DNA of 24,000 nucleotides, taken from Methylosarcina fibrata AML-C10. Lineage in GTDB: Bacteria; Pseudomonadota; Gammaproteobacteria; Methylococcales; Methylomonadaceae. The DNA is taken from the NCBI RefSeq assembly GCF_000372865.1, contig NZ_KB889965.1:1724990-1748989 (forward strand). The letters run 5' to 3'. The translations under genes were made by a program, and so were the position numbers. Position 1 is the first letter of the stretch. Each line of letters begins with the position of its first letter. Positions 1-19,642 of the stretch are shown here, in pieces. The notes under the pieces were generated by a model. That model searched no databases. It was not told the DNA's origin and saw only the letters and a list, made by a program, of their open reading frames with translations.

Positions 1-620
1 TCATGTAATTCAATTCGATCTTCCGAATCTTCGTTGTCATCAACTTTGATCCGAAGATTTCCATCGATCGGTTTATGTTGAGTTTTTACAAACAGAATTT
101 CATACCGGGCTAATTTAAGCGCTTCTAGATGCTTCTTTTCTTTGCTCTCGGCTACAGGGACACCAATATCAAACAAATATCCACCAAGTCTATTCTTCTC
201 AATAATTTCGGCATCAAGGAGGATATCGGCCAATATCTCTTGCGTACTCGGAATAAATGGGCATTCAGCAGACTTTAATTGAACTTGCATATCGTTTGCT
301 GCCAATGGCCACACCAGAAACACCCCGTCCTGACCGTGCCAAATACGGCCATTCTCATCATTGGGTACCCAACGTTTTTTCTGAACCAAATGCCGCATGG
401 CATCGATCAACCAGGGTTCCAGATGCATGCCCGCCAATGGTTTGCCATAGCGATCCGCATAACTCCATTCGTCTCTCTCCATGATTTTGTATCTCACTGT
501 GTCAACGATGTTAGCCAGTGGGTTGCCATGGTCTTTTTGATCTTGTAATGCTGCGTAGAGCGTTTTGTAAATTGCCTTTTCACCAGTGGCAAAAATATCC
601 GTTTGTTCCTTCTGAATGGA
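1..620 (-). CDS. C-terminal portion of a MobH-type (TraI_2_C-like) relaxase homolog. It is partial, running off the left edge, and lies in the same frame as 621..1283 directly after that ORF's TAA.
   Basis: My own reverse-strand translation is open for all ~206 codons from 620 to 1 (SIQKEQTDIFATGEKAIYK...GRIWHGQDGVFLVWPLAANDMQVQL...RIKVDDNEDSEDRIELH). The W-x-G-x-x-G-x-FLVWP segment resembles the C-terminal domain of ICE TraI relaxases. The ORF track omits it because there is no stop inside the window. The first in-frame ATG is at 482, with a GTG at 497. Confidence 0.6.
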
Positions 621-1283
621 TTATCCTGCCATGATATAAACCGTTGACCGATCTTCCTTATCGCTCCATCGAATGTGATAGCGTTTCAATTCATTTCTTT
701 GAAGCCATTCATAAAGTGATTCAGCACCTGGTCGCCATTCAATACCCTTATCCTCGGCATACACCGATATTTTGGATATGGCGGTAATTGCCTCGCTAAA
801 TAAGCCTGCCAGGAACGCAGCGTGAGTCCAAAGCGATTCTTCTTCTTTTCTTATTTCAGGCGTTGCTCGTGTCAATATTCTTCGTTCTGCGTACCTGATT
901 GAAAACAGAGAGACTTCCAGGCAGAAAGAAAATAATCCTCCCAACAACTTGAAATGATTTTTCTCGGAAGCAGGCAGCAAGTGCGTCATTTCAGCAAGAT
1001 GCCTTATCGGGGACATGATCTTTTTTTCTACTTCATCCTTGTTATGTGCTCCAGCCAATCCTCTTGCCAAAATGATTTGCTTGATCATTTCCTTATTTTT
1101 TTCGATCAGCAAATCAGTGGGAATAACGGGTATACCAGTCGGGAAGCCTGGCAATCTCTGTGAATATTCCTCAAAGACATCCAGACTAATTGACTGGGCA
1201 TTTACAACATCTGATTTCTCAAGATTTAACTTGCTACGTGCAGGCTTTTTTTTCTTAAAAATCGCAGCAATTTTTCTGATCAT
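621..1283 (-). CDS. N-terminal portion of a MobH/TraI_2-like relaxase homolog with a degenerate His motif.
   Basis: 220-aa ORF. IRHLAEMTHLLPASEKNHFKLLGGLFSFCLEV matches the LPAS-x-x-HH-x-x-x-GGL-x-H-x-LEV signature of MobH relaxases, but the histidines are replaced by N-H-F and F-C. Its start lies 3 nt after the stop of the upstream gene. Confidence 0.6.
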   Translation of the reverse strand: MIRKIAAIFKKKKPARSKLNLEKSDVVNAQSISLDVFEEYSQRLPGFPTGIPVIPTDLLIEKNKEMIKQIILARGLAGAHNKDEVEKKIMSPIRHLAEMTHLLPASEKNHFKLLGGLFSFCLEVSLFSIRYAERRILTRATPEIRKEEESLWTHAAFLAGLFSEAITAISKISVYAEDKGIEWRPGAESLYEWLQRNELKRYHIRWSDKEDRSTVYIMAG

Positions 1284-1286
1284 TAT

Positions 1287-1988
1287 TTATCCATGAAACT
1301 TGATGTAATGGTCGATGAGATTCTGAATATTCCGACGCATCGATATGGGATCGATGGTGTTTCTGAACTCTATGTCTACCGTTCCATTCGTGCCGGCCGA
1401 ATCCAAATGAATGGTGCCAATTCCCATCAATCTGTCTAATACGCCTTGTTGAACACCAATTGTTTTTATATCGCCAAATCGTATTTGTACTTGGGACTGA
1501 GCAATAATCCCCTTTTTGAGGATGATGCCATCATCGTCAATGTAAAGTTTTTCGGCAAAGTAGCTGTAAATAAACCTCATTCCATAAAGGAAGAGGAATA
1601 CACCGCTCAATCCTAGTAGATCGCCAATTCCTTTTAAATTAAGCCATTCGGGAATCGTTTCGATGCCAAAGCAATAAAATACCCAACCCATAACCCTGTA
1701 TGGGTTCATGATTAGCAAGCCTCCTAGAATTATTTCCAAATAATTTGTTACAAATCCTCGCCAAGCTTGACGGAACTCGCAGGATTTGAACTCGTTTTCT
1801 GTTTCGCCTTTTTTATTTGATTTTTTGATGCTTGATTGAATCCGATTTGCCGTAAAGCCCAAATGGTTATCGGGCATTACGGTGTATTCGTCGCCCGTTT
1901 CCCGTAACAACAATTCGCACATGTCCATCGCATCGTCGAAGCTTGCAAACGAATTCATCCTTAAATTCATCAGTTTGTTTTTTGACAT
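1287..1988 (-). CDS. Membrane protein with two TM helices and a C-terminal bacterial PH (bPH_2, YdbS/YdbT-like) domain.
   Basis: There are two hydrophobic segments (YLEIILGGLLIMNPYRVMGWVFYCF and IGDLLGLSGVFLFLYGMRFIY). They are followed by KLYIDDDGIILKKGIIAQSQVQIRFGDIKTIGVQQGVLDRLMGIGTIHLDSAG, which is typical of bPH_2. I prefer the ATG at 1988 (MSKNK...) because AGGAGA sits 7 nt upstream; the track's longest ORF starts at 2018. Confidence 0.7.
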   Translation of the reverse strand: MSKNKLMNLRMNSFASFDDAMDMCELLLRETGDEYTVMPDNHLGFTANRIQSSIKKSNKKGETENEFKSCEFRQAWRGFVTNYLEIILGGLLIMNPYRVMGWVFYCFGIETIPEWLNLKGIGDLLGLSGVFLFLYGMRFIYSYFAEKLYIDDDGIILKKGIIAQSQVQIRFGDIKTIGVQQGVLDRLMGIGTIHLDSAGTNGTVDIEFRNTIDPISMRRNIQNLIDHYIKFHG

Positions 1989-2043
1989 GACTGGTTCTCC
2001 TGAGTGCTTGGTTCTCATTTAATTAAGCTGCATTCAATTTGGT

Positions 2044-3384
2044 TTAGTTATGAACTCGTGAATTCGGAACTCTGACCATCGTAAATCGCGATCGCGTCTC
2101 GCCCTTGTTGCTCATTTGTGCACCGATGACTTGAAATGGCTTGATGTATTGCATGTATTTTGATTCCACCTTCATTTTTCTTACTAAGTTGTCCCAATAC
2201 ATTTGATCGACACCCAAGACGATCTTTGTGGCAACGTTTGAAAAAAAGTCTTCAGAAAAATGTGTAGGCGATTGGCTCGCGCAAATAAGGCCAAGGCCAA
2301 ACTTCCGACCTTCTTTAGCAATGGTGTTCAGGATGTTGTTTTCATCCTCGCGGAAGAATAAATGGGCCTCATCTATGATCATGATGTCCCGCAACATACC
2401 TTCATCCTCCCTTCGAACCGGGCCTCTTTCGAGTGCAGATGAAAAAATTTCTTGGAGCCTGAACTCAACAAACATTCGCTTTTCATCTTCACGAAGTGCT
2501 GTGATGTCGTAGTGCCAAACTGGATTTGATGGATCGAATGGTGGTTGCTGATTCTTGAATATCCCGCTTGCTTTGAGATTTTCGAATCGCTCAACAACCG
2601 ATTTCAAAACTTCTTTTGATTCATATTTGATGAAGTCTTCCAGTTCCTTGCCGGTTTCCAGGTTCTCTATGTAAGCTTTATAAGACTTGATCGCTTTTTG
2701 ACGCAGATCCATCGCTTTCTCTAGCAAATCGCCATCAGGCTTTGCGCCAGGCGCTGAAAGCTGCTTGTTTATTTTGTAGAGCTTCGTTGTGATTTTGTTT
2801 AGTTCTTCCAGAGCTCTTCCAGCTTGTGTGTCACTTCCAATAATGAGCTGTTTGAGTTTGACGAATGCGTAACGGCAAGCGTCATCCATGGTTGGGTAAC
2901 GTTTTGGGTATTTACGATCAATTCCATCATGCAAAACCCAGGATTTGTAATTGTCAGCATAGAACCCGTTGGCTGCATAGAGATCGGTAATTAAATGCCT
3001 CATGACAGCTTCTTGCCTTGAACCGATGGGACGGCATCCATTAATTGTTGCAATAAAGTCTTGTACACGCTTTCTCACGCCACCGAAATGACGATCCTGA
3101 CTTACTACAAATGGATTTAGCCCGTATTCTGTGGATTCCGAGAACCTGACGGACGATGTTCCGCTTAGATCGATATCGCCATGCACGTCCATGATATGAA
3201 TTCGTGGAGCGGGTGAAAAGTGATGCATTTGTTGAATCACTCTTCGCAAAAACGTGGTTTTTCCCATGCCTGTTTTTCCCATAACCAGCATATGGGCATT
3301 CACCAGGCAATCGAAATCGCAAAACACCGGGGAGGCTTGATTTTTTGACAAGAGATAATCATCTTGTCCGAGCTCTATCTTCAT
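2044..3384 (-). CDS. Soluble HerA/FtsK-superfamily P-loop ATPase (DUF87/AAA_10-like).
   Basis: Walker A is VMGKTGMGKTTFL and Walker B is MIIDEAHLFF. The EGRKFGLGLICASQSP segment is typical of HerA/VirB4-like ATPases. No TM segment is present, and there is a long coiled-coil insert (residues ~190-270). Confidence 0.8.
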   Translation of the reverse strand: MKIELGQDDYLLSKNQASPVFCDFDCLVNAHMLVMGKTGMGKTTFLRRVIQQMHHFSPAPRIHIMDVHGDIDLSGTSSVRFSESTEYGLNPFVVSQDRHFGGVRKRVQDFIATINGCRPIGSRQEAVMRHLITDLYAANGFYADNYKSWVLHDGIDRKYPKRYPTMDDACRYAFVKLKQLIIGSDTQAGRALEELNKITTKLYKINKQLSAPGAKPDGDLLEKAMDLRQKAIKSYKAYIENLETGKELEDFIKYESKEVLKSVVERFENLKASGIFKNQQPPFDPSNPVWHYDITALREDEKRMFVEFRLQEIFSSALERGPVRREDEGMLRDIMIIDEAHLFFREDENNILNTIAKEGRKFGLGLICASQSPTHFSEDFFSNVATKIVLGVDQMYWDNLVRKMKVESKYMQYIKPFQVIGAQMSNKGETRSRFTMVRVPNSRVHN

Positions 3385-3389
3385 TTGGT

Positions 3390-3410
3390 CAACATCAAGT
3401 AATGATGTTG
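3390..3410. promoter_or_regulatory. 8-bp perfect inverted repeat CAACATCA-agtaa-TGATGTTG, ending 5 nt upstream of the ATPase start codon.
   Basis: Read directly from the sequence. It occupies the position where an SD would be expected, and no SD is visible. Confidence 0.3.
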
Positions 3411-3469
3411 CTATTCTAAAAACGCGTTTGTGCTTACATCGGGGTGAAAGGCGCGATTTTTCAGTCTCT

Positions 3470-4546
3470 TTAGCTTGAGCCGATAATGCCTAACCCGCAA
3501 TCAAGCACCTTGCCTGCCTCAACGTCTCTAAAATGTTTGTAGTCGTAAAATCGTTTATTTACGTCCTCATTAATGAGTAATCGAGTGCAATCACTGAGAT
3601 TTGCCTGACCAGTTAACTCGGTCATCCTTTGCTTGAATTCATTTAGGCGATCTTCTCTGTATGCGTTTGCAACATAGGGATGAAGCGGGTTTAGATAAAA
3701 CCTTGCATCCACTTTTTCTTGCTTGAGCCATAGAACTAGATCCTTGAATTCACTAAAGCGGTTTTCGATCCAGGGCGTTGCCATTGAAGGTTTGGGATTG
3801 ATCGGAAATTGTTTGCGAATGAAAGCTTCGTGATCTTTTTTGATTTCGCGGTCGTAACGGTCGAGGTAATATCGTCCCGTTCCCTCTATGTCATACCTTA
3901 CCGAGGGTTCTCCGCGTAAAACGGTGACAAGCCGGCTAAATCCGTCAGACAGACTCGATGCGAATAAATAATTAAACAACACCTTTTGCTTACTGCTTTC
4001 ATCGGCTATCGGGTGTAACTGGTAAGCCGGGCCATATGACTTGATGTCCGTAAAAGCAATTGGCTCCAAACCATATACGATGTTGCTGATTGCCACGCCT
4101 TCGTGCTTCAAACCTTTCAGCGTTGCCAAGATTTCATCGGGCTTTGCGGCCAGAAATGCAAGATTGTAAAAGCGTGTCCCAGGCAAACGCGCTTCTAATA
4201 AAGATGGCTCAATCATGCCCATGATTGACGATCCCACAATGAATGCGTTCGGTAATTCATGTTTTGATTTTTGGTGCTCGTCTGGCGATTCGTTAATTGC
4301 CGAAACAATATTTCCAGATGCCAGAGGCGATCTTTCTCTTGCATCCCTTACAAGATGTTCGACCTTCAAGTATCGTTCGTTTGTAGTCGACGATGTGTAT
4401 CGAGCACCAATCGAGTGCTTGTCACTGAATATCTGGTACGGGTTAACCACCACATTCCAGGTGGGTAACGCCCAGGCAACAGCTCCGGTACAAAGCAAGC
4501 TGGCTTTCCAAAATGAATCAAAACTGCCAATAGATAAAGCTTTCAT
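3470..4546 (-). CDS. Signal-anchored periplasmic protein, a possible SGNH-like acyl-transfer partner of the adjacent MBOAT (AlgJ/AlgX/PatB-type role).
   Basis: 358-aa ORF with an N-terminal hydrophobic anchor (ASLLCTGAVAWAL). It overlaps the end of the MBOAT gene by 29 nt. IVGSSIMGM could be a block-I Ser motif and YDYKHF a D-x-x-H block V. The functional call is inference. Confidence 0.5.
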   Translation of the reverse strand: MKALSIGSFDSFWKASLLCTGAVAWALPTWNVVVNPYQIFSDKHSIGARYTSSTTNERYLKVEHLVRDARERSPLASGNIVSAINESPDEHQKSKHELPNAFIVGSSIMGMIEPSLLEARLPGTRFYNLAFLAAKPDEILATLKGLKHEGVAISNIVYGLEPIAFTDIKSYGPAYQLHPIADESSKQKVLFNYLFASSLSDGFSRLVTVLRGEPSVRYDIEGTGRYYLDRYDREIKKDHEAFIRKQFPINPKPSMATPWIENRFSEFKDLVLWLKQEKVDARFYLNPLHPYVANAYREDRLNEFKQRMTELTGQANLSDCTRLLINEDVNKRFYDYKHFRDVEAGKVLDCGLGIIGSS

Positions 4547-5924
4547 GTGATCCTGACATCCAAATACTGGTTAAAAATAAAGCGGATAGATAGCCAACAT
4601 TTCTTAGTGAAGGCCGCAGTGATTGAACTTCTTTTTGCGCGTTCACATACGCAATGCAAACCGAAAGTAGAATTCCGATTTGAATGAATTCCATACCAGA
4701 AATAAGACTGGTTTGTGCGCAGCTATTACAAAGGCCAGACAGCATGCTTGGGACAGCAACACCGCTGATGCCAACCATCCCTTTCCAGATTGAAATAGCA
4801 TGACCAACCGATTCGGCTCGAAACACAACCCAGGCCACTGTCACCGACAGAAACGTTAATCCGATTGCCGCCGTTTCCGGAAGCGCATATCGGGTTCGTT
4901 CCCAAACTCTGTGCATACCAATGAACAAACCATGCAAGAGTCCCCACAAAACAAACGTCCATGCGGCGCCGTGCCAGAAACCACCAATGATCATTGTCAA
5001 CCCCGCTGCCATGACTCCTTTAACAAATCCATTCCTATTTCCGCCAAGCGGGATATACACGTAGTCACGTAGAAATCTTGATAATGTCATGTGCCACCGC
5101 TTCCAGAAGTCGGCAATGCTTTTCGCCTGGTAAGGAGAATTGAAATTTTGAGGCAGGATGATTCCGAACATTAAGCCTATCCCTATGGCCATATCGGAGT
5201 ATCCGGAGAAATCGAAGTAAATTTGCAATCCATATCCCAAAGATGCCGTCCACGACTCAAAGAACTGTAATGACGTGTCAGTTGCAAATAACGGGTCTAC
5301 TTTTTCGGCGATCCTGTCGGCAATGACGCTTTTTTTGAACAGCCCAATTACAAACAAAAACAAGCCTTGGGAAAACAGCCGTGCATCAAATGCAATCCGC
5401 TCTTTGAGTTGCGGCATGACATCCGAGTAATGAAGGATTGGCCCGGCAATAAGGTGAGGGTAAAAAGAGATGGAGAAGGCAAATCGTCTCAGGTTGAAGT
5501 CTTCTACATAGCCTTTGTAACAGTCGACTAAGTAAGCGATAACCTGAAATGTGAAAAATGAAATCCCTAGCGGCAAGACCAACTTCAACGGTTCGGCGCC
5601 AGATCCAGTCAAGTCATTCCAATTTTCAATGAAGAAGTCTGCGTATTTGAAGTATCCCAGCAAACCAATGTTATAGATCAAGCCGATGGTCAATAAGGGC
5701 TTCGATTTTGTTCTGGAAATTTGCATTCCAAGAAAAAAATTGCCAATGGCATTGCCAATCAATAACGGGACGTACCGCGTATCCCACCATCCGTAGAAAT
5801 ACACGGAACAAATAATGACCAGTAATTGCGCGTCATTTTCACGCTCCAATTTTTGGAGCGTCCACCATGTTGCTATTGATAAGGGAAGGAAGAAATAGAT
5901 GAATTCTGGCGAATTGAATAGCAT
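4518..5924 (-). CDS. MBOAT-family membrane-bound O-acyltransferase (AlgI/DltB/PatA-like).
   Basis: 468-aa polytopic protein with the characteristic N-terminus MLFNSPEFIYFFLP. The conserved segments FWKRWHMTLSRFLRDYVYIPLGGNR and GFWHGAAW include the MBOAT catalytic His region. CAGGAG RBS. Confidence 0.9.
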   Translation of the reverse strand: MLFNSPEFIYFFLPLSIATWWTLQKLERENDAQLLVIICSVYFYGWWDTRYVPLLIGNAIGNFFLGMQISRTKSKPLLTIGLIYNIGLLGYFKYADFFIENWNDLTGSGAEPLKLVLPLGISFFTFQVIAYLVDCYKGYVEDFNLRRFAFSISFYPHLIAGPILHYSDVMPQLKERIAFDARLFSQGLFLFVIGLFKKSVIADRIAEKVDPLFATDTSLQFFESWTASLGYGLQIYFDFSGYSDMAIGIGLMFGIILPQNFNSPYQAKSIADFWKRWHMTLSRFLRDYVYIPLGGNRNGFVKGVMAAGLTMIIGGFWHGAAWTFVLWGLLHGLFIGMHRVWERTRYALPETAAIGLTFLSVTVAWVVFRAESVGHAISIWKGMVGISGVAVPSMLSGLCNSCAQTSLISGMEFIQIGILLSVCIAYVNAQKEVQSLRPSLRNVGYLSALFLTSIWMSGSHESFIYWQF

Positions 5925-6020
5925 GTTTGCTCCTGATTACCGGTACAAACATGCTATCCACTACACAAAAACTTATCCGTGTAAAAGGACGCTTAAAAAC
6001 GCCTCTTTTGGTTGATCGAC

Positions 6021-6037
6021 TGTCCTATTTTGGGACA
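6021..6037. promoter_or_regulatory. Copy 1 of the 17-bp palindromic motif TGTCCTATTTTGGGACA, about 97 bp upstream of the MBOAT start.
   Basis: Matches three other copies at 9808, 10745 and 10845. The arms are TGTC / GACA separated by 9 nt. Confidence 0.55.
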
Positions 6038-6047
6038 GCCTAGAGTT

Positions 6048-6668
6048 TCACAATCTATCTGGTCGGCGAGCGCGTAAAAACCTTTCTTTTTGGGTTCTTT
6101 CTTTGATCAAAATAACGCTGATCGCGCTCAACGAGCGATGCAATTTTTTATTATCCAAATTTTCTTGCATCAAGCCGCTAACAGCTTCAAGACCCATTTC
6201 AAGCTCTCTATAACTCATTAAATACGGGCTCACTGGCAACAATCTGGGTTCATAAATCCTTTGAACCGATTTGTCTTCCAGGCGGGCCTGTTGTTCATTC
6301 AAACGATTTGCTCTCTCTACTTCTTGCTCAGGACTCAAGTATTTCGGATAGTAGGTTTCTCGAATGCGTTCAGTAACCAAATACCATGCACCCTCGTCGA
6401 AGTACTCTTGTTTATCCGGATAGGTAACTTTTCTGTTCTTTCTAAATCTTTTGTTGACTATCTTTTGATGGTTTTCATCGAACGCCTGCAATTGCTCGCA
6501 TTCATTCCGCAATAGCTCATGGCTCTTATCCTTATTGAAACCCGAGCTGTTCCCTCTCTTATCGACACACTCTTCGATAGACAAATATTCCAGGAGATCA
6601 CGATCCCGGTTAATGTTGGTGCATGCCGAAATCAGTATTGCCTGTATAAGTACCAAAGCCAGTTTCAT
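6048..6668 (-). CDS. Lipoprotein of unknown function.
   Basis: MKLALVLIQAILISAC has a lipobox (I-S-A-C). I prefer the internal ATG at 6668, which lies 1 nt after the TAA of the upstream lipoprotein gene. Confidence 0.65.
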   Translation of the reverse strand: MKLALVLIQAILISACTNINRDRDLLEYLSIEECVDKRGNSSGFNKDKSHELLRNECEQLQAFDENHQKIVNKRFRKNRKVTYPDKQEYFDEGAWYLVTERIRETYYPKYLSPEQEVERANRLNEQQARLEDKSVQRIYEPRLLPVSPYLMSYRELEMGLEAVSGLMQENLDNKKLHRSLSAISVILIKERTQKERFLRARRPDRL

Positions 6669-6669
6669 T

Positions 6670-7254
6670 TTACCCTTGGCGTTGCTTAAGCTCGCGGCCA
6701 AACACAGATTCTAGCTCTCGGTACCGCCATGGACTGCAAAGTGTTTTATGCCCAATCGTCGATTTAGTAGCCATCAACTCGTATAGCTCTGTCAGATTCG
6801 TGCTGGAAATCTCGTTTAATCGGTTTGGAAAAAGATTCAGTTTGTCGTTACGAGCCTTAATGGATTTTTGTGCATCAATATCGGCCTCTAGTCTCGGTTG
6901 ATACTTATTGCTCAGATCTTTTGGAAGCCTCATTTCTGGAAAATTCTCATCAATGTAAAGTCCTTTTACAAATTCCCAGCAAAGTGAATTTTTTTCTAAT
7001 GGGTCTTTCGAGGCATGTTTTCCTTGCCCGGAATTCCCATCAAGGTTTGATTCAGAAAATTTTTGAACCATCACTATCCGATGGCATTCGTGATGGGCTT
7101 GCAAATATCCCTGCTCTCCACTGATTTTAGTTTCTGTCATACGCTTCATTGCGCATGCATCCAGCTCTGCATTTTTTTCCAGCGCGAATCGTTGGGCTTG
7201 AGTACACCCAGTCAACCAGCCCGCCATCATCATTAAAACAACCAATCTAACCAT
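6670..7254 (-). CDS. Lipoprotein of unknown function.
   Basis: MVRLVVLMMMAGWLTGC has a lipobox (L-T-G-C). I prefer the ATG at 7254, preceded by GAGAAAGG, over the track start at 7335, whose N-terminal extension is Cys/Trp/Arg-rich and unlikely. Confidence 0.65.
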   Translation of the reverse strand: MVRLVVLMMMAGWLTGCTQAQRFALEKNAELDACAMKRMTETKISGEQGYLQAHHECHRIVMVQKFSESNLDGNSGQGKHASKDPLEKNSLCWEFVKGLYIDENFPEMRLPKDLSNKYQPRLEADIDAQKSIKARNDKLNLFPNRLNEISSTNLTELYELMATKSTIGHKTLCSPWRYRELESVFGRELKQRQG

Positions 7255-7454
7255 AACCTTTCTCTCGACCCCCCACGGGCGTTTAACTATCGAATTTACC
7301 CTGATCCAGCATCTCACACCCTTAAAACAATGCAAGGGTGCATCGATGTCATCTTTCTAATCCTGGGGGGCGGTGGTAAACCCGTGAATTAACCTGAAAT
7401 AATGAAAAATTTATTTAGTAATTCACTAAAAAAATTCATTTATTTACATGATTA

Positions 7455-7480
7455 GTGATGATTACCTTAATTATCATCAC
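7455..7480. promoter_or_regulatory. Inverted repeat GTGATGAT-N10-ATCATCAC in a 22% GC tract upstream of the lipoprotein/MBOAT gene string.
   Basis: Read directly. The arms extend to 10 bp with one mismatch. Flanking AAAAATT-N-ATTTATTTA direct repeats suggest a curved or UP-element-like promoter region. Confidence 0.3.
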
Positions 7481-7857
7481 TTTGCATGAAATCCAGGCAA
7501 TACAATTTCAACGAGGTATTTTGCAGGCTATCAGATGCGCCGTATCTCGCTAAGAGCCTAATCTAAAAGGATTATTACGCCTCTACAGATAGACTTTGAG
7601 AACGATGCGCAAGCAAACGTCGGCGGAGAAATTCCCGGAAAGCCCGATGGCTGGACGGTTTTCCGATCAAGGAAGCTGCGGAACGTCACGAGCATTTGTT
7701 GAGTTATCTGAGCGCGAGAAACGCCAACTTCTAGGCGTAGACGGAAAGGGTTACCGGAAGCAATCTTCTTGACGACGGAGGAGTGATCGGTGGCCAAGGA
7801 TGGCCGGAGAACTTTGCCTCCGGAAACCGGTTAATTGCCGCCGAATCTTGAATAGGG

Positions 7858-7900
7858 CACCTGTACCAGGCAGGCTCCCAACACCTGTACCAGGCAGGCT
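7858..7900. repeat. Perfect 19-bp tandem direct repeat CACCTGTACCAGGCAGGCT x2, with a 24-bp period.
   Basis: The copies are at 7858-7876 and 7882-7900, separated by CCCAA. They lie at the right edge of the GC-rich island. Confidence 0.9.
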
Positions 7901-8065
7901 TGTGTTCTTGCTACGTTTTGGATAATCTTATTGATAAGGTGATCTGACCGAACCTGCCGCCGGGTTAAACAGATATTGCGAATTCAAGCAATCCATACAC
8001 TCGACCTCAATCATGGTTGATGCGTAATCGGCGGACATCGACCGAAATTTGATTGGAGGTTTTTC

Positions 8066-8806
8066 ATGGCTTCAATTCCGCTTTCGAAAATTTCTTTGGG
8101 TTCCGTAAAAAAATCATTACGGACGCAATACCCTGATATTCGATCATCACATTTGAGTGAAGCGCTTGCTGCTTCTTTACGTCGTCGCACACATGCATCG
8201 CTCCTTGCTGAATTGCCCAGTTTGGCCGTTGATCCTCCGATTGAACTGCTTGACGAGGCGCTGTTTGATCAACGTCTTCAGGAGTTTGGTTATCAGCCCG
8301 ACCCAGAATTCAGTTTTGAATGCCTAGAAAAAACGCATGTGATCCGTACAGCCGATATGTCTGCTTGGGATATCGAGTATAAGAGTGCTCGCGAAATGGC
8401 TTGGCGCAATCTAATAGTGCTAACAATCAATGCCGGTATAGAATTGAAACTATTTTCCTTGCGCCCTGATGACAATCGCTGGCCAGGGGCTGACAAGAGG
8501 GAATCTTGTCTATTTAATTTTTTATTGCCAAATGGCTTGCCGGCTAAAGGCTACGTATGTGATGCAGGCTGGGGTGAATTATCCGTACACGCTGCGGTGA
8601 ATCCTAATGGGGAATGGGTTAGGACGTCCAATGCAGGGTTTCATGCAGGTGATGCATTTGCTGCTAGTTGGCTGGAGCGTAAAAATGGCGCATGGCTTCA
8701 ATCTTCCACGTCGATGTTCAATTGCAAAAAGACAATTTTACATGCCCTCGCTGAACAAGTTGTAGAGCCTTTAGGTTACGGAGATAGGGGTAGGGTTATC
8801 ATGTAG
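8066..8806 (+). CDS. Hypothetical protein (246 aa).
   Basis: GGAGG RBS 6 nt upstream of the ATG, and a terminator hairpin downstream. No family was recognised. Its N-terminal SHLSEALAASL...THASLLAEL motif is shared with the 20333..21478 protein. Confidence 0.6.
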   Translation: MASIPLSKISLGSVKKSLRTQYPDIRSSHLSEALAASLRRRTHASLLAELPSLAVDPPIELLDEALFDQRLQEFGYQPDPEFSFECLEKTHVIRTADMSAWDIEYKSAREMAWRNLIVLTINAGIELKLFSLRPDDNRWPGADKRESCLFNFLLPNGLPAKGYVCDAGWGELSVHAAVNPNGEWVRTSNAGFHAGDAFAASWLERKNGAWLQSSTSMFNCKKTILHALAEQVVEPLGYGDRGRVIM

Positions 8807-8826
8807 CCACCCTGCCAGGTTCGGGA

Positions 8827-8848
8827 CTCCCCCGAAGAATCGGGGGAG
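8827..8848. terminator. Hairpin CTCCCCCGA-agaa-TCGGGGGAG between convergent genes.
   Basis: 9-bp GC-rich perfect stem followed by GATTT on the plus strand. It lies between the stops at 8806 (+) and 8853 (-). Confidence 0.5.
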
Positions 8849-8852
8849 GATT

Positions 8853-9790
8853 TCAGCGCTTCAATAGTTCACTGACAAATTCATGAAGCGACTTTTCCTG
8901 TTCTGTGCTCAGCGCGGCGCATGACAATGTCAGAGTTATCTTTCTTCCATTGTTTTTTAACTTGCCTACTGCCTTGCCTTTTTCGTTAATGAAAAGCATG
9001 GGTTCTGAATTTGATTGACTTCCAGGTGATAAACTTGGTTTTTGAATGGATGATGCTAATGTCGCTATTCTTTCGATCTCGGAAGCTACTCTTATCTGGG
9101 TCAATTCCCCGGCTTCAACGAGCTCAATCGCTTGTAGCGTTGCTTCACGATATCTTTGGTGGTCAATTGTTTCTTTGGCAAAGAGTCTCTTCAGTTCCTC
9201 TGCTGCAGTTCGATTCAGTAAAAAAGGGTTTTTATCCAAAACCGATCTCAACCACTCCGGCAGTTCCATAAACGCCAAATAACGGTAGAGTTCGCTTCTC
9301 GTTTTTTTAAGATAGCGAGCTAATTCAGTTCGGCTTCCAAAATTTTCTTCCACGCCATGAATGGCCAATGCCACTTCATAATCGCTCAAGCCTTCGCGAT
9401 CAAGGTTTTCAGCCACCGCAATCAATCGCATTTGCATATCATCGGCGCATTTCACTATTGCGCTGATATGCGGTTTTTTAAGTTGCTGATGAGCACGCCA
9501 GCGTCTTTCGCCAGCGATAATTTGAAACCGGTTTTCATGTTTTCTAACAACGATAGGTTCAATCAAACCGTGCACATCGATTGATTCAGCAAGCTGTTCA
9601 ATTTTTAATTGGTTAAAGTCTCTCCGGGGTTGCCATGGATTCGGGTCTATCAATTCCATTGCTATGGGTTGACTTTCGCCGTCGCTACTGGTCAATGAAA
9701 AAATTGGGCCCGAGGCCAAGTGTTGATCGAGATTGTTCTTGGATAAAGACTTCAACTTATCAAGAGGGGATTGCTTTTTGGTTTCATTCA
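8853..9790 (-). CDS. parB: ParB/Spo0J-family partition or DNA-binding protein.
   Basis: It has the ParB box GLIEPIVVRKHENRFQIIAGERRWRA and an HTH region. I prefer the ATG at 9790 (MNETKK), which has AAGGA upstream. The track start at 9815 has no SD and lies inside the palindromic motif at 9808-9824. Confidence 0.9.
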
Positions 9791-9807
9791 TTTTGGCGTT
9801 CCTTGAC

Positions 9808-9824
9808 TGTCTCATTCTGGGACA
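9808..9824. promoter_or_regulatory. Copy 2 of the 17-bp motif, TGTCTCATTCTGGGACA, in the parA-parB junction.
   Basis: Direct read; same orientation as the other copies. Confidence 0.55.
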
Positions 9825-9864
9825 GAGAAATTTTTTTTTCGACCCTTTGTGAGACGAGTCCTAT

Positions 9865-10704
9865 CTAATTCACGATGGTTTCTTGGTTGTTTTGTTCCAG
9901 GCCTAACTTTTCGATCAGATACTGCGCCAATTCCTCAAAATCCTTAGCCACTTTCCCGTCTTTTTCCATTTTCCGTATCGGCATCCGGGCAATTGACGCT
10001 TCGCCAACCTTTGCGCCTGCATGGATTACCATCGGCAATATATTGCCAATCTTCTCCTGTACTGTTTCAAAAATAGCTTTGCAGGCCCGTCTTCTTTCAT
10101 CGTGTCTTGAAATCAATACACCGATATTGATCAATTCCGGATTGATGCTTTCTTTGATCCGATTTATATATGCGGTAAGGTCGGCTACCCCGTATAAAGG
10201 GTACTGGCTGCTGGTTTCGATCGGAACTATGTAGTGGGTTGATGCGGCCAACGCATTGCCAGTAAGCAATCTAAGTGACGGCGGAGTGTCGATGATGATG
10301 ATATCGTACGCTTCGCGTAACATTTCAATACGCCGGCGCATCTCTTCGTATGGCCTTGGTGAATAATTTCTCAGCGACTCTTCAACTGACTGATCAAGTT
10401 CAAGCGATCCCGGTATTAAATGCACATTTTCAAATCCTGGGTTTGTTTCGATTTGAATCGACTCCATGATTTCCTCAAGACTGCCGCGAAACAATACGCT
10501 TGAGTTTTTACTTAATGTAGATGGGTGCGCGACACAAACATGAGTGCTTGCATTTGCTTGAGGATCAACGTCGATTAAAAGCACATTGAATCCTTGAGCG
10601 CCTAATTCGGCTGCCAAATTTACAGCAAGCGTTGTTTTGGCTGAGCCGCCTTTTTGAATGGCTACGGTAATGACCGGCGCTAATCCTGTTTTTTTCTCGC
10701 TCAT
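9865..10704 (-). CDS. parA: ParA/Soj-family partition ATPase.
   Basis: Deviant Walker A is AIQKGGSAKTTLAVNLA, and IIIDTPPSL is also present. AGGA RBS. Confidence 0.9.
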   Translation of the reverse strand: MSEKKTGLAPVITVAIQKGGSAKTTLAVNLAAELGAQGFNVLLIDVDPQANASTHVCVAHPSTLSKNSSVLFRGSLEEIMESIQIETNPGFENVHLIPGSLELDQSVEESLRNYSPRPYEEMRRRIEMLREAYDIIIIDTPPSLRLLTGNALAASTHYIVPIETSSQYPLYGVADLTAYINRIKESINPELINIGVLISRHDERRRACKAIFETVQEKIGNILPMVIHAGAKVGEASIARMPIRKMEKDGKVAKDFEELAQYLIEKLGLEQNNQETIVN

Positions 10705-10744
10705 TGTTTTTCCTGTTTTTTAAATTGAGTGATTTATGTGCCTG

Positions 10745-10761
10745 TGTCTCATTGTGGGACA
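10745..10761. promoter_or_regulatory. Copy 3 of the 17-bp motif, TGTCTCATTGTGGGACA, 41-57 bp upstream of the parA start.
   Basis: Direct read. The palindrome extends to CTGTGTC...GACACAG. Confidence 0.6.
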
Positions 10762-10844
10762 CAGCGATTCCTTCGAATCACGGTTCATTTTCCGCATATT
10801 TGAAATAATGCAACCAACCACAAAAAGATTCCTTTCCAGGAGGG

Positions 10845-10861
10845 TGTCTCATTGTGGGACA
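10845..10861. promoter_or_regulatory. Copy 4 of the 17-bp motif, identical to copy 3 and exactly 100 bp from it.
   Basis: Direct read. It lies between the integrase stop (10878) and parA. Confidence 0.6.
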
Positions 10862-10877: not shown

Positions 10878-12572
10878 CTAAGATGCCTTTTCTTTGTCAC
10901 TCAATCCCAGTATGGCCTTGTATCGCTCATCCCGGTCGGTATGAACATAGATAGAGGTCGTGGCAATGTTGCTGTGACCAAGATTGTCTCGAACGATTGC
11001 TAAGGGGACACCGCTGGCAACAGCGTGACTACCATGGGTGTGCCGCAGCCAGTGCGTACTGGCTCGCTTTAGTTTTTCTGCTGCTAAAGGGTCTTTATCA
11101 GCTACTTCACTCGCCGCCTCTTCGAAAAATCCTTTGAGTTTTTGATATAGTCCTGACGCGCTAAGCGCTTCTCGACTTTCCCCGCGCAGCTTTCCGATAA
11201 TGGGCGTGTTCTCTGACACGTAGCCAACTGGACCGAGCTTTCTATCCCGAAGATGAGCATTAATTCCATCCATAAGGCTTGGTGGGATGGGTATCTCTCG
11301 ATGTTTATTACCTTTTCCAATAACATCAAGCCACCATTGATCGCCATCAAAGTTTGATACTTGCTTCAGGTCGCCAACTCGTGCATGCACTATTTCGTGT
11401 AACCGAAGCCCAGTTTGATATGCAAACTTTAGGATAAAGACCGTGCGCTGGTAACCATTGCGTTGCGATTCTGTTAAAGCAGTATTTTTTGCCTGATTCT
11501 CAGCAAATACGTTAATTTGCCCCCATAATGCAGGAGACAACACACGGTCTGTACTGTTGGTTCTTCGCCCATATCCTTGTGTGCTTAACCCTGTAAAAGG
11601 ATTGCTATCCAAATAGCGCTGCCCCACCAGCCATTCACAAAGACCGCTCAGGATGACTTCGGATTGGCGAATGCTGGATGGTTTAAGTGGCCCTTTTAAT
11701 GGGCGCCATTCCGGAGACCATCTTGGCGCTGGCTTGCCAACCCATCGATTGGCTGGATGGGGATCAGCAAGAAACCGCCTGTATTCAGCACAGTCAGGCA
11801 TTGTAATTGAAGACAAGGCCTTTCCTTTCTCAAGGATCGCCCAAAGCAGGAATCTTTCAGCTTCTTTACGATATGCGCGGTGTGTTGATGTGTCGTCGCC
11901 CCAGAGCGATAGCCATGCCATAATTGACTCGTAATCATTACGCGCATCAATTCTGCATCGTTCTATGGGTGCCCGGTTTGTACCGGCTTCACCTGTTAAA
12001 TGCGCAGGCGGAGCAAACCGTTCCAATGGTGCGATGCGATTACTAACGACAACCACATCAAAATTGGTCGCCTTTTTAGACGACAGGTCTAAAGAGATGC
12101 CTATATCATCCGCTGATGTCGAAAAAAAATCGTGGATTGCTTCTGCTGATTGCTTCCCAAGATTGGGTACTTTTTTCCACCAACTGCCACCGTGCTGATT
12201 GATAAACGCTGCGAGTTCAGCCAGTGTTTTTATTTTTTTGACGCAGGCTAACCGAGCCGAAATTTGCTGCGGGAGCCATCGGTTGTAATGATCTTCTGAT
12301 TGAGGCTTGGGATCTGGCTTTGACTTGAGCGTATCAACAGATTTGAGTGCTCGATTCATCCATTCCTGGCTGTATTCCCGATCCTGCTCCCATAGTTTTG
12401 CATCACCATCTATTCCTAGTTGCTGTGCTTTTCTTGCAAGTTTTTCGCGTAGCAGCCTAACAACACGCATAACCTCATTTCGGTCTGCGTCGTCGAGATA
12501 CATTTCCCCTATGACATCCCATGAGATGCCTTGAATCCAACTGCGTATTAATGCTAATTCACTAGGATTCAA
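10878..12572 (-). CDS. Tyrosine recombinase/integrase with a long N-terminal extension.
   Basis: The complete catalytic set is present: GLRLHE (R), GKGNKHR (K), HWLRHTH (HxxR), LGHSNIATTSIY (H, Y). The N-terminal extension contains an HhH-like segment, VPNLGKQSAEAI. The apparent TTG start overlaps the KfrA-like stop (TTGA), so the start is uncertain. Confidence 0.9.
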   Translation of the reverse strand: MNPSELALIRSWIQGISWDVIGEMYLDDADRNEVMRVVRLLREKLARKAQQLGIDGDAKLWEQDREYSQEWMNRALKSVDTLKSKPDPKPQSEDHYNRWLPQQISARLACVKKIKTLAELAAFINQHGGSWWKKVPNLGKQSAEAIHDFFSTSADDIGISLDLSSKKATNFDVVVVSNRIAPLERFAPPAHLTGEAGTNRAPIERCRIDARNDYESIMAWLSLWGDDTSTHRAYRKEAERFLLWAILEKGKALSSITMPDCAEYRRFLADPHPANRWVGKPAPRWSPEWRPLKGPLKPSSIRQSEVILSGLCEWLVGQRYLDSNPFTGLSTQGYGRRTNSTDRVLSPALWGQINVFAENQAKNTALTESQRNGYQRTVFILKFAYQTGLRLHEIVHARVGDLKQVSNFDGDQWWLDVIGKGNKHREIPIPPSLMDGINAHLRDRKLGPVGYVSENTPIIGKLRGESREALSASGLYQKLKGFFEEAASEVADKDPLAAEKLKRASTHWLRHTHGSHAVASGVPLAIVRDNLGHSNIATTSIYVHTDRDERYKAILGLSDKEKAS

Positions 12573-13498
12573 AGTGAAATCCTTTCGCCGGTTAGTTTTT
12601 CTGCAGGGCGGCGCTGTTTTTTGACCAACGCCTGCAACTTAACGGATCGTTCTTTCTCTTGAAGCAACGCTTTTTCCGTGCTTGACAGTTCGGCCCGCAA
12701 TTTGTCGACTTCTGCCTCTAGCTTACCTTGGCGTTCTAACTGATCTCCAACTTGATTCATGATTTGTGTCAGTCTTGCGCGTAACGATTCCTGATCAAGC
12801 CTTGCTGTTTCCAGGGATCGATTCAAGTTTGAAATGATTCTGGCTTGCTCGTTCTTTGCCGATTCCTTTTCTTCCTCAATCCGCTTCAGATGCCAAAGAT
12901 GATCTTTCTCAGATTTTTCCGACCATTCCTTGGCTTGAATCTCGTGTGATTTTCGTGCTTCTTCGAGTGCACCTTCTGCTCTTGAAAGATTTTCTCGATT
13001 AATAGCCAATGCGAATTCTGTTTCTTTGAAATTTTGCGTTGCGACTTCCAGGTTTTCGACCAAGCCATTAACCAAAGCGATTTGTTCGGCCAAGGCTTGG
13101 TTCAGTTCGTCTTTTTCAGACTCCCGTTGCTGTTGATTTTCTATTAATTTTTGTTCGAGACATTTGAGGTGAGATTTCCATTCAGACTCTCGGAGTGATA
13201 GCTCTTTCTCTTTTGCTTCGTATCCCTTCTTTGCCTCAATAAGAGCTAGATTCCAGAGTGATTCTGACGCATCCACGATAACCGCAGGTATATTTGGATT
13301 TTCTAACTTTTTACGATGCTTTTCGACAAAATGCAGAGTCCAATCATTCATCGCCCGCTTGATTACGGCGGGGCTATTCACATGAATGCGATCCCGAATG
13401 GCTTCAATCGTAGGAAACCGTCCGTCTTCCAAAAACACTGAATTGCAGCATTCGTAGGCAAGGGAATAGGTATCTGATCGCTTTTCCATTTCGCTCAC
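12569..13498 (-). CDS. KfrA-like protein: an N-terminal DNA-binding domain plus a long coiled coil.
   Basis: EDGRFPTIEAIRDRIHVNSPAVIKRAMNDW fits the KfrA_N pattern (G-x-x-PT...R......S..I.....W). The remaining ~230 aa are E/K/L/Q-rich coiled coil. There is a GTG start at 13498, or an ATG at 13489. Confidence 0.7.
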   Translation of the reverse strand: MSEMEKRSDTYSLAYECCNSVFLEDGRFPTIEAIRDRIHVNSPAVIKRAMNDWTLHFVEKHRKKLENPNIPAVIVDASESLWNLALIEAKKGYEAKEKELSLRESEWKSHLKCLEQKLIENQQQRESEKDELNQALAEQIALVNGLVENLEVATQNFKETEFALAINRENLSRAEGALEEARKSHEIQAKEWSEKSEKDHLWHLKRIEEEKESAKNEQARIISNLNRSLETARLDQESLRARLTQIMNQVGDQLERQGKLEAEVDKLRAELSSTEKALLQEKERSVKLQALVKKQRRPAEKLTGERISL

Positions 13499-14184: not shown

Positions 14185-14892
14185 TTAGGAAAATAGTTCC
14201 ACGTAACAAGCGTCCAGATTTCGATTAACGCTTTTTGCCAGAGCTTTAAGCCCAAACATCTCACTCCAATGGCTTCGCTTTTTATCATCCGCGTCCCTGT
14301 TATCGTGTAACAAAGCCTTATAGTTTTTTGGGTCAGATAGCAATTTTTCGATGGATAACTTTTTTATTGCCAAAACATCAAAGAGCTCGTTTTCAAAAAT
14401 GGCCGCTTTTGTATTGATTATTGCGTTGTTATTTTTACTAACATAATTAAGCAAAATCTGAAATTCATCATCAACGCTTGACTCGACACGATTAAATATC
14501 ACCCTTACCTTTTCTTTCGGCACTCCTAATCCTGCCAAAGTACCAATCATCGATGTTGTTTCTCTCTGCTCTTTTGTACCGTTTGTTACCGGTATAAGAA
14601 AATAGTCGAACTCAACATGTGATTCGTCGAATTTATGCATGCCTTCCAAAAAATCTTGGATATTTGATGCACCGATATCGATTATCACATCATCTTCTAC
14701 CATTAACCGTTTGAACAGCTCTCTGAACTTTTCCCCTTTTATTTTTTCAACCGCTATACCAATACTCTCCGCCGTTTCGTTAATGCTTTCCACCGCAATT
14801 ATTTGCGCTCCATTCATGCGTGGTGATAATAAATGCGTTGCGATAGTGGTTTTTCCAACGGTACCCGTAAAATTCATGATGGCTACTTTCAT
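14185..14892 (-). CDS. ParA-superfamily P-loop ATPase of the TraL (IncP) / StbB (R388) type.
   Basis: The P-loop is MKVAIMNFTGTVGKTTIA. VIIDIGASNIQDFLEGM resembles TraL's VVIDNGASSFVPLSHYL as I recall it. At 235 aa it is close to TraL's ~240 aa. Confidence 0.75.
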   Translation of the reverse strand: MKVAIMNFTGTVGKTTIATHLLSPRMNGAQIIAVESINETAESIGIAVEKIKGEKFRELFKRLMVEDDVIIDIGASNIQDFLEGMHKFDESHVEFDYFLIPVTNGTKEQRETTSMIGTLAGLGVPKEKVRVIFNRVESSVDDEFQILLNYVSKNNNAIINTKAAIFENELFDVLAIKKLSIEKLLSDPKNYKALLHDNRDADDKKRSHWSEMFGLKALAKSVNRNLDACYVELFS

Positions 14893-14924
14893 TGCCTTAT
14901 TCCATTTATTGTTTAACTTGTAAT

Positions 14925-15407
14925 TTAATCTTCTTGTTCGTTATCTTTAATTTCATCGTACTCTTCGTCATGTTCTCTAAGGGTTTTTATCCGCATATCT
15001 CGTATCTCCTTGGGAGTCAAAAATTTTTTATTGGCTTGTTCATTAATTGATTTTTCTTGCTGAGAATCTTTTGTTACTAAAACACTTGAATTATTTTCAT
15101 GGATATTCAATCTTATAATTCCTTTGTTTCCTTTTTGGTTTGTTTCTGGTTCTTGGTTATTGCCCTTTCTCTTTTTTCTAATCCGGTATAAGTTTTTCTC
15201 GAAAGTTTTAAGGCTCATACTGATACCAAGCGACTCGCTAATCGCTTCAAGAACTTTTTCCCGGCGCACCCCGGATGACAAGGCTAACTCCACTGAGTCA
15301 ATTACCTCCCTTAATTTGGCTGCCTCTGATTTCCCATCAATCCCGCTTGCCAGCTTCGCTAGCTTTTCAATCGCATCAGTTTTTCTGTTACCCAACGAAC
15401 GCCCCAT
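14925..15407 (-). CDS. Small basic putative DNA-binding protein (KorA/TrfB-like HTH), in the first position of the traKLM/stbABC-like operon.
   Basis: 160-aa ORF. VLEAISESLGISMSLKTFEKNLYRIRKKRKGN looks like an HTH plus a basic tail. AGGA SD lies inside the first upstream repeat. Confidence 0.55.
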   Translation of the reverse strand: MGRSLGNRKTDAIEKLAKLASGIDGKSEAAKLREVIDSVELALSSGVRREKVLEAISESLGISMSLKTFEKNLYRIRKKRKGNNQEPETNQKGNKGIIRLNIHENNSSVLVTKDSQQEKSINEQANKKFLTPKEIRDMRIKTLREHDEEYDEIKDNEQED

Positions 15408-16548: not shown

Positions 16549-17499
16549 ATGGATAAAGCCATGTTGCGCCACAAAACCAGTCTTCATCAGCTATACAAAA
16601 ACGGCGAGGCTGAAATAACCCGAGCTTGTAATGAGGATTCCAAAACACAAAAACGACTGATTAACCAATGGCTGAGTTTTTGTATTTGGTCGATTACCAA
16701 GGACGGTAATCACCTTGAAAGCATAAGATCGGTAACCAGCGAACATATTATCCGTTACGGACAATATCTAAAGTCAGAATTCGACAACGGAAGATTTGCC
16801 AGCACATTGAGCGCGACGAGTTATTTGTCCGGCATAAATACCCTGATGAAACTAATCCATGGTGGCAACTGGGAAAAGATCAGTCCTATAAAGGATTGCG
16901 GCTTGGAACCTATTTCTCATATTCCAAACAAGAAACCTGGATTAGACAAAAATGGCCTGCCGGATATTGAAAGTCTGGCCGGTTATTTACTCGAACTTCA
17001 AATGTCGCTTGGCGTTGTTATTCGAGAAGCCCTAATTCTGGATTTAAGAGAAGCGCTGATTGAAGGACGCTCGACAGGATTTGTAACCATTACCAACTTT
17101 CAAAATGGAATCCGGAGAAAGGTCCCTTGCCGCCCATCTGCCATCAAAGCCATTGGCAATGGTATAGCGGCCAGGCGCTTGCAAAAACTATTGCCGAAAA
17201 AGTGGGAATTTAACGATTTTCTATCAGCCCATAACAAACTGGCAGCGAGAAAGGGCTACTCAACCAATACCGCCAGAGGCATTTATGTTCGCGACCGGTA
17301 TCAAGAATTGGCCGGTGTCGAACCGCCGATCATTTCCGGACTCGGTCAAACTGAACACTGTCAAAAACTTTCCCAATATTCCAATAAGACACCATCCGAA
17401 ACCAAAGGCATCGACAAAAAAACCCGTCACAATATTGCCAAAGAGATCGGTGTGCTCGGCATAGAACAACTCAAAGAATACCTGGATAAAAAACCATGA
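16549..17499 (+). CDS. Tyrosine-recombinase-like protein A, a paralog of the next gene with a degenerate active site.
   Basis: It aligns with ORF B along its full length (IRYGQYLKSE/ISYGQHLQQQ, KDCGLEP/KDCGIER, IGVLGIEQLKEYL/LGHSRVEISNAYL). It keeps Arg (VIREA), the second Arg (NTARG) and the terminal Tyr. It lacks the Lys (NFQNGIRRK) and both His residues. Confidence 0.7.
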   Translation: MDKAMLRHKTSLHQLYKNGEAEITRACNEDSKTQKRLINQWLSFCIWSITKDGNHLESIRSVTSEHIIRYGQYLKSEFDNGRFASTLSATSYLSGINTLMKLIHGGNWEKISPIKDCGLEPISHIPNKKPGLDKNGLPDIESLAGYLLELQMSLGVVIREALILDLREALIEGRSTGFVTITNFQNGIRRKVPCRPSAIKAIGNGIAARRLQKLLPKKWEFNDFLSAHNKLAARKGYSTNTARGIYVRDRYQELAGVEPPIISGLGQTEHCQKLSQYSNKTPSETKGIDKKTRHNIAKEIGVLGIEQLKEYLDKKP

Positions 17500-19639: not shown

Positions 19640-19642
19640 TTA

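Follow-up and report, generated by a model that had tools for sequence, protein, structure and literature searches.

We have analyzed a 24-kb stretch of DNA from Methylosarcina fibrata AML-C10 (contig NZ_KB889965.1, positions 1,724,990 to 1,748,989; from here on, the window), in which four copies of a 17-bp palindrome accompany the parAB partition genes of a mobile element. The four palindromes very likely serve as parS in the ParABS system that the element itself encodes, where they would act both as centromere and in the self-repression of parAB. The sites are real, non-random, conserved in position, linked to parAB and co-varying with ParB. Their arrangement is almost certainly the ordinary one of plasmid-type ParABS systems, and not a global control network in the style of KorB.

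Four palindromic sites around parAB

Exact matches to TGTCYYATTNTGGGACA occur four times in the window, all of them on the + strand (sites 1 to 4, Table 1), as against none in 100 dinucleotide-preserving shuffles of the same sequence. A first-pass annotation of this DNA had reported these four same-orientation copies, and its further observations on them hold as well: the two copies upstream of parA are identical and 100 bp apart, one copy lies in the parA-parB junction ahead of the parB start, one precedes a gene for a membrane-bound O-acyltransferase (MBOAT), and none falls in coding sequence. The looser pattern TGTC-N9-GACA, whose search it had proposed, returns in the window the same four sites and no others, versus 0.34 expected, and allowing three mismatches adds only the reverse-strand readings of these sites. 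The half-site TGTCYCA is present 11 times in the window, compared to 5.1 ± 2.4 times in simulated sequence; since four of these are isolated outside the four sites, which is about the number given by chance, the excess is due to the full sites.

The genes in this part of the window are on the - strand, in the order KfrA-like gene, tyrosine recombinase with a DUF3701 domain, site 1, a TTGCAT hexamer, site 2, parA, site 3 and parB, with parA adjoining parB on its upstream side and co-oriented with it. Past parB come a divergent 246-aa gene, two lipoprotein-like genes, site 4 and the MBOAT operon. At site 2 the palindrome extends to CTGTGTC...GACACAG. Site 3 ends 3 nt from the ribosome-binding site of parB (AAGGA) and 16 nt from its ATG. 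This ATG, at 9791, is the true start of parB: it is preceded by the AAGGA, and an identical database protein (P0001) has 312 aa. Because parB starts here and not where a mechanically called open reading frame (ORF) of 320 aa begins, site 3 overlaps only a spurious N-terminal extension, and all four sites are intergenic. Between sites 1 and 2, the TTGCAT hexamer is invariant across an alignment of the recombinase-parA spacer (7 sequences).

The sites travel with parAB in related elements

Relatives of the element (numbered with L below) were fetched through an exact-protein look-up and a metagenome scan, and their ParBs are 41-94% identical to that of the window. Each of them has 17-bp TGT-N11-ACA palindromes: a pair ahead of parA, with a spacing of usually ~100 bp, and a single one at the junction of parA and parB. 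The position of site 1 is occupied in all relatives, with arms that are lineage-specific, while that of the junction site is shared with L009, L010, L012, L013, L014, L015 and L136-L148; an extra site is found just past parB in L015, L148, L145, L142 and L146. Among annotated relatives the closest is a Methylobacter plasmid of 349 kb, with a ParB 61% identical and the same KfrA-recombinase-parA-parB order; between recombinase and parA it carries a different 17-bp palindrome, TGTACCATAATGGTACA, in two copies.

The arms read TGTCYCA throughout the window clade (ParB at least 76% identical), TGTTCCA in L013, L014, L143 and L145, TGTACCA in L001, TGTATCA in L015, L144 and L148, TGTGGAA in L002 (a Methylomagnum plasmid), and TGTAGCA in two complete plasmids, pM02_c6 and a C. 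violaceum plasmid. Between lineages both arms always change together and symmetrically (CYC, TCC, ACC, ATC, GGA, AGC). The sites also persist beside parAB where integrase, KfrA and StbA are missing, as in L012 (with the order RPA-parA-parB), L002 and the complete plasmids L214 and L215. Being kept without the recombinase, KfrA or StbA, they remove all three as candidate binders. ParA, whose Walker A motif starts at about residue 17, has no N-terminal helix-turn-helix (HTH) domain; with the other three removed, ParB remains as the sequence-specific protein.

Among the matches listed from a scan of a genome collection with TGTCCCANAATRRGACA, none belonged to the Methylococcales and most were single matches in unrelated taxa, in line with chance (we estimate ~1,000 chance matches in the collection). 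In PLSDB, megablast found nothing that matched the region.

ParB residue 166 co-varies with the arms

The recognition region of the methanotroph ParBs is constant, KKTRxELYRYLAF, with the exception of x, which is residue 166 of the window protein (K162-K-T-R-S166-E-L-Y-R-Y in its HTH). Serine at this position goes with TGTC arms, alanine with TGTAT, threonine with TGTAC and lysine with TGTG, while valine goes with TGTT in two separate lineages, with ParBs 72% and 56% identical to that of the window. In distant members of the family serine is found again with TGTC (about nine contig groups), and asparagine, following the conserved arginine, is found with 16-bp sites. This covariation is correlative evidence, suggesting that ParB reads the arms.

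The window ParB itself is a canonical ParB/Noc-like CTPase. A Pfam scan (E <= 0.01) found in it ParB_N alone (E 4.6e-26), with no KorB or KorB_C domain, and NCBIfam places it in the generic parB_part family. Its CTPase motifs are intact, GERRWRA and ENLDRE being invariant in the alignment. In a sequence search of the PDB, Noc and Spo0J/ParB came with E values of ~1e-25 to 5e-25 and KorB ranked last, at 7.8e-8. The structure predicted with AlphaFold2 (mean predicted local distance difference test, pLDDT, of 79.8) confirms the ParB-clamp fold; since it matches the ParB, Noc and KorB clamps alike (KorB fold match E 1e-10), the fold does not discriminate ParB from KorB. Four features of a Type I ParABS system are found: a ParB/Srx domain with GERRxRA and an HTH, an adjacent Walker ParA, a repeated palindrome that follows parAB, and co-evolution of site and ParB.

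A probable local centromere, with one further site at the transfer operon

In the 24-kb window the sites occupy two loci only, and there are none before stbAB, kfrA, the 246-aa gene, the lipoprotein genes, the integrase-like pair or the toxin-antitoxin pair. When the 349 kb of the Methylobacter plasmid were scanned at up to 2 mismatches, the 2 sites between recombinase and parA were the only ones, and the plasmid's own MBOAT-MobH-TraD operon had none. Plasmids pM02_c6 (36.7 kb) and that of C. violaceum (43 kb) have exactly 2 sites each, before parA and at the parB stop. No family-type site was seen in the transfer regions of two relatives (L223 and L224; ~20 kb each, with fragmented genes), and a TraI_N protein search intended to extend the relatives beyond the relaxase returned fragments only. 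With sites only at parAB in three complete relative plasmids, the distribution argues for a local centromere and autoregulatory operator, and not for a KorB-type network.

Site 4 is found at the lipoprotein-MBOAT junction in 6/6 close relatives in which this junction is visible (the window, L007, L136, L139, L146 and L009). In L009 the position holds two inverted copies, while the flanks have otherwise diverged. The first-pass annotation had taken this site, standing before what it called a cargo operon, as favoring a KorB model. The site is indeed kept in the close clade, but it is absent at MBOAT in L013 and in the Methylobacter plasmid, and the operon is not cargo but conserved transfer backbone: MBOAT is followed by p358 (DUF1574-like), a DUF87/HerA-like ATPase, bPH_2 and a TraI_2/MobH relaxase, with the coupling protein next in relatives.

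On the stretch from site 4 to the start of MBOAT, a hairpin-like block, AAAGAG(G/T)CG-TTTTNAG-CG..TCTTT, is conserved in four lineages (window ~5975-6010; L007, L009 and L013). This block could terminate the lipoprotein operon or be a cis element of another kind, for instance an origin of transfer (oriT), and its presence there means that site 4 may be part of the 3' end of the unit before it and not of the MBOAT promoter. Judging from sequence, a KorB-like link of site 4 to the transfer genes is possible. In a stronger version of this idea, which we put forward tentatively and consider doubtful, ParB would have gained a second conserved loading site at the MBOAT-ATPase-relaxase-coupling-protein operon, where its CTP-dependent sliding clamp would couple segregation to conjugative DNA processing or mark the oriT region. 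If true, a canonical ParB, without KorB domains or a known KorA partner, would have come independently to a function like that of KorB.

A pair of membrane-bound O-acyltransferases heads the relaxase operon across all relatives. The TraI_2/MobH relaxase gene of the window (1-1283, - strand) has an in-frame premature stop after codon 220 (~618-620, ...YIMAG*SIQKEQ); in tblastn, an intact homologue of 704 aa aligns with it in one piece over aa 1-427 (93% identity), and the same 220-aa relaxase ORF is present in an independent metagenome contig (L003). The contig on which ParB and the TraI fragment are recorded has 4.9 Mb, so that the element has probably been integrated into a chromosome and is possibly no longer self-transmissible. 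In the Methylobacter relative, two FlhC-family regulators lie by the MobH/TraD genes (NZ_CP091425.1 100843-102524; L218 1043-2724), which recall the AcaCD/SetCD activators of IncC/SXT elements. By this analogy, the transfer genes of the family may be controlled via FlhC-type regulators rather than ParB.

Other features of the region

The positions of the features are collected in Table 1. The slot upstream of kfrA is occupied by an StbA-like and StbB pair in the window, L007, L009, L013, L136 and L142, or by an actin-like ALP_N/ParM cassette in L010, L014 and L015, and is a swappable second segregation module next to ParABS. Most relatives also keep a trio formed by two tandem Integrase_1-like ORFs and an HTH_3 protein, adjoined by a toxin-antitoxin-like HTH_17/PIN pair.

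A large branch of ParBs from plasmids or secondary replicons, with 34-42% identity to that of the window, likewise comes with 17-bp TGT-N11-ACA palindromes, for example TGTCCCAASTTGGGACA, TGTCTCTAGTAGAGACA and TGTAGCAASTTGCTACA. Its members (L151, L155-L161, L160, L172, L178, L188, L153/L163/L168/L170/L210, L214 and L215) have their sites mostly just downstream of parB, and this large branch of plasmid ParBs with 17-bp sites is uncharacterized. The perfect palindrome TGTCCCAAAATGGGACA, for its part, occurs in 2-4 clustered copies in unrelated phyla (Phascolarctobacterium, Aminicenantes, Poribacteria), with phage-type replication genes (DnaB_2/IstB-like in Phascolarctobacterium), a carbamoyltransferase and a secretin as neighbors. 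These clusters look like iterons or operators of unrelated systems and, not being beside parAB, are irrelevant to the window motif.

Table 1. Position of the sites, genes and related loci. Coordinates are those of the window unless another locus is named.
Feature	Coordinates	Strand	Remarks
Site 1, distal parS-like palindrome TGTCTCATTGTGGGACA	10845..10861	.	exact match; 17 nt past DUF3701 tyrosine recombinase stop, upstream of parA
Site 2, parA-proximal parS-like palindrome TGTCTCATTGTGGGACA	10745..10761	.	exact match; 41 nt before parA ATG
Site 3, parA-parB junction TGTCTCATTCTGGGACA	9808..9824	.	exact match
Site 4 TGTCCTATTTTGGGACA	6021..6037	.	exact match; 10 nt past stop of lipoprotein-like ORF 6048-6701, 96 nt before MBOAT ATG (5924)
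Degenerate fifth copy or half-site relic CGACCCTTTGTGAGACG	9840..9856	.	aligns with intact second junction site CGTCCCATTATGGGACG of L142/L146
TTGCAT hexamer (-35-like), candidate parA promoter element	10808..10813	-	between sites 1 and 2
parA, Walker-type partition ATPase, 279 aa	9865..10704	-	Pfam AAA_31/CbiA, NCBIfam ParA_partition
parB, 312-aa ParB/Spo0J-family CTPase-type protein	8853..9791	-	Pfam, NCBIfam, PDB, AlphaFold2, database twin P0001
Tyrosine recombinase with DUF3701	10878-12572	-	
KfrA-like gene	12569-13498	-	
MBOAT, first gene of conserved operon	4518..5924	-	Pfam; synteny in L007, L009, L013, L139, L146, NZ_CP091425
MBOAT-relaxase operon	621-5924; L007 13711-20939; NZ_CP091425.1 103736-120494		
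Segregation slot upstream of kfrA	14185-15407; L010 3356-4704; L014 4913-6160; L015 5236-6610		
Integrase_1-like/HTH_3 trio and HTH_17/PIN pair	16549-18960 and 19181-20212		
TGTCCCAAAATGGGACA clusters	L046 2216-2329; L059 2856-3028; L033 7865-7983; L039 4259-4377; L102; L110		

Discussion

The first-pass annotation held the motif to be unrelated to chromosomal parS, which the relatives contradict: the arms of the sister-lineage site TGTTCCA-TWA-TGGAACA are identical to those of the Pseudomonas parS TGTTCCACGTGGAACA (TGTTCCA-CG-TGGAACA), so that the window motif is related to parS, and it appears to be a variant of it, longer by one base at the centre and with A/T as its core. Like the sites of the window, those of the chromosomal systems (TGTTNCACGTGAAACA; in Pseudomonas TGTTCCACGTGGAACA) have TGT...ACA arm ends and are served by a ParB of the same CTPase and HTH fold. 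Arm position 5 is permissive in chromosomal parS (PMC5450999), matching the C/T tolerance at this position in the window arms. The two differ in that chromosomal TGTTNCACGTGAAACA has 16 bp and a central CG, whereas the window sites have 17 bp, an A/T centre and a C for T at arm position 4; and while chromosomal parS lie near the origin, the window system is on a mobile element with its sites round the parAB promoter.

The nearest named homologues of the window ParB, with 35-40% identity and the HTH core SRSELYRYLAF in common, are those of the Burkholderiales secondary replicons (Bsr), whose parS are palindromes of 16 bp that have CG at the centre and are rich in T at the 5' end; one of the Bsr systems, on a chromosomally integrated plasmid, has five parS copies upstream of parAB with a conserved arm asymmetry (PMC5450999). 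The likeness extends to short palindromic parS in several copies beside parAB, lineage-specific specificity and, in that one system, arm asymmetry. It does not extend to the format, as the window sites have 17 bp with an unpaired A/T-rich centre and a central CG is missing, nor to the hosts, which for the window system are Methylococcales.

Plasmids of the IncA/IncC group have a related backbone, since the Methylobacter relative has a MobH relaxase, an F-type type IV secretion system and FlhC-like activators. In IncC, the parS of parAB-053 overlaps the parA promoter and serves in ParB autorepression, and further parS are scattered over the backbone in intergenic positions; the ParB carries a KorB domain, and the parS, of which there are 7-14 scattered copies, is an inverted repeat of 22 bp with core TTTCACATGTGAAA (PMC10954446). 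In contrast, the ParB of the window family is without KorB domain, and its sites number 2-5 in a cluster at parAB, with no more than 1-2 others, at a single locus. As IncC scatters extra parS on a related MobH/F-type backbone, a modestly dispersed arrangement has a precedent. The KorB protein of RK2/IncP-1 is a ParB-family CTP-dependent clamp (PMC11790492), and its OB3 operator has a 13-bp palindromic core (PMC3597684). The window system shares with KorB and its operator the clamp family, the short palindrome and a partition protein able to double as repressor, but sequence similarity is weak (8e-8), the window ParB has neither KorB nor KorB_C domain, and the operator sequence is different. 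The OB operator reads TTTAGCSGCTAAA. In a limited literature search we did not find a description of a 17-bp TGTCCCA-type parS, which does not prove its novelty.

The first-pass annotation proposed a KorB-like operator or a dispersed centromere. One part of this proposal has survived, in that sequence comparison makes the motif very probably the site of a ParB homologue, in a multi-copy centromere that brackets the parA control region. A KorB-like global network, in which ParB would be mainly a transcriptional co-regulator with operators at many operon boundaries, coordinating maintenance with conjugative transfer, is by our assessment unlikely. The position of site 4 before the MBOAT-DUF87-bPH-relaxase-T4CP (type IV coupling protein) operon, kept in 6/6 close relatives and doubled in L009, is what such a network would have, and the sites do flank the parA control region; moreover, the ParB family of CTP clamps includes KorB (PMC11790492), and 14 parS lie scattered on the backbone of IncC plasmids, which is likewise of MobH/F type (PMC10954446). 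Yet the window ParB is far closer to Noc/Spo0J and has no KorB/KorB_C domain, the site loci are two in 24 kb, and in the complete plasmids sites are down to 2 in the 349 kb of Methylobacter, none of them at the MBOAT/MobH operon, and to 2 each in pM02_c6 and the C. violaceum plasmid. L013 and the two ~20-kb transfer regions point the same way, the terminator-like conserved block separates site 4 from MBOAT, and no KorA/TrbA-like partner was identified, the small HTH proteins of the window not having been examined for that role.

Other readings of the palindromes dispense with ParB altogether. It is very improbable that they are recombination sites, either for multimer resolution or as attachment cores, of the adjacent DUF3701 tyrosine recombinase: two copies do come directly after the recombinase gene, and with their imperfect inverted repeats and short spacer they resemble the core sites of such recombinases, but sites also lie in the parA-parB junction and past parB, their type tracks the ParB HTH residue, and their presence beside parAB without any DUF3701 recombinase in L012, L002, L214 and L215 largely refutes this reading. 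No better chance can be given to an RNA hairpin acting as terminator, mRNA-stability element or element of the repetitive extragenic palindromic (REP) kind, which would leave unexplained the linkage to parAB and the covariation with the ParB residue. The stem-loops with T-run flagged by a terminator scan at 9807-9825 and 10845-10861 belong to the + strand, on which G-U pairing can accommodate the T/G asymmetry, and sites tend to follow stop codons; the neighboring genes, however, are all on the - strand, and there the hairpin contains a C-A mismatch and is not followed by a U-run. We rejected it, as the flagged strand is antisense, folds of the sense strand are weak (-4 to -12.5 kcal/mol, with only the 6021 site standing out from shuffled sequence) and Rfam gave no match. 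Finally, the resemblance of the Methylobacter variant TGTACCATAATGGTACA to the 17-bp NtrC consensus, TGCACC-N5-GGTGCA, could suggest a site for a global regulator of the host, such as an NtrC- or CRP-like dimer. This we regard as extremely improbable: the element-specific changes of the arms refute it, since in related hosts the arms differ from element to element and go with the type of ParB instead; the sites, moreover, are confined to parAB.

Several points weigh against taking the palindromes as parS sites. The window site has 17 bp and an odd centre, while its characterized relatives, chromosomal and Bsr, have 16 bp and a central CG. Outside the methanotroph clade the pairing of residue and base is not a strict code, with alanine at x accompanying TGTC in L178. 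A simple sigma-70 scan found a canonical promoter at neither the parA nor the MBOAT locus, and as none was called we infer the promoter role of TTGCAT and the operator geometry. The distribution data are limited, as motif counts for the source element cover the 24-kb window of a 4.9-Mb host contig. Lastly, it is from sequence and homology that we infer ParB binding, its CTP-dependent spreading, repression and partition.

In the mechanism that we favor for the ParABS system, a ParB dimer would read the two 7-bp arms (TGTCYCA) via its HTH, with Ser166 contributing to the choice of base 4. ParB would then bind CTP via GERRWRA, close as a clamp, slide or spread from the sites, and build a partition complex that the Walker-type ParA would use to segregate the element when it is extrachromosomal. 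Two of the sites bracket TTGCAT upstream of parA and the third abuts the ribosome-binding site of parB, and the same binding most likely represses parAB, a role that we propose because it is the usual arrangement where ParA does not have an HTH of its own. Site 4 would be an extra loading site 3.8 kb away, which would enlarge the ParB domain and may dampen the MBOAT-relaxase operon.

No new kind of system is revealed by these sites. They are likely the centromere and incompatibility determinant of a family of methanotroph plasmids and integrated elements, which would be useful for annotation and for the design of compatible vectors. The 17-bp, odd-centred format of parS is common in a large and uncharacterized branch of plasmid ParBs, and the family offers a natural series in which one residue of the recognition helix and one base pair of parS change together; both bear on how the specificity between ParB and parS evolves.

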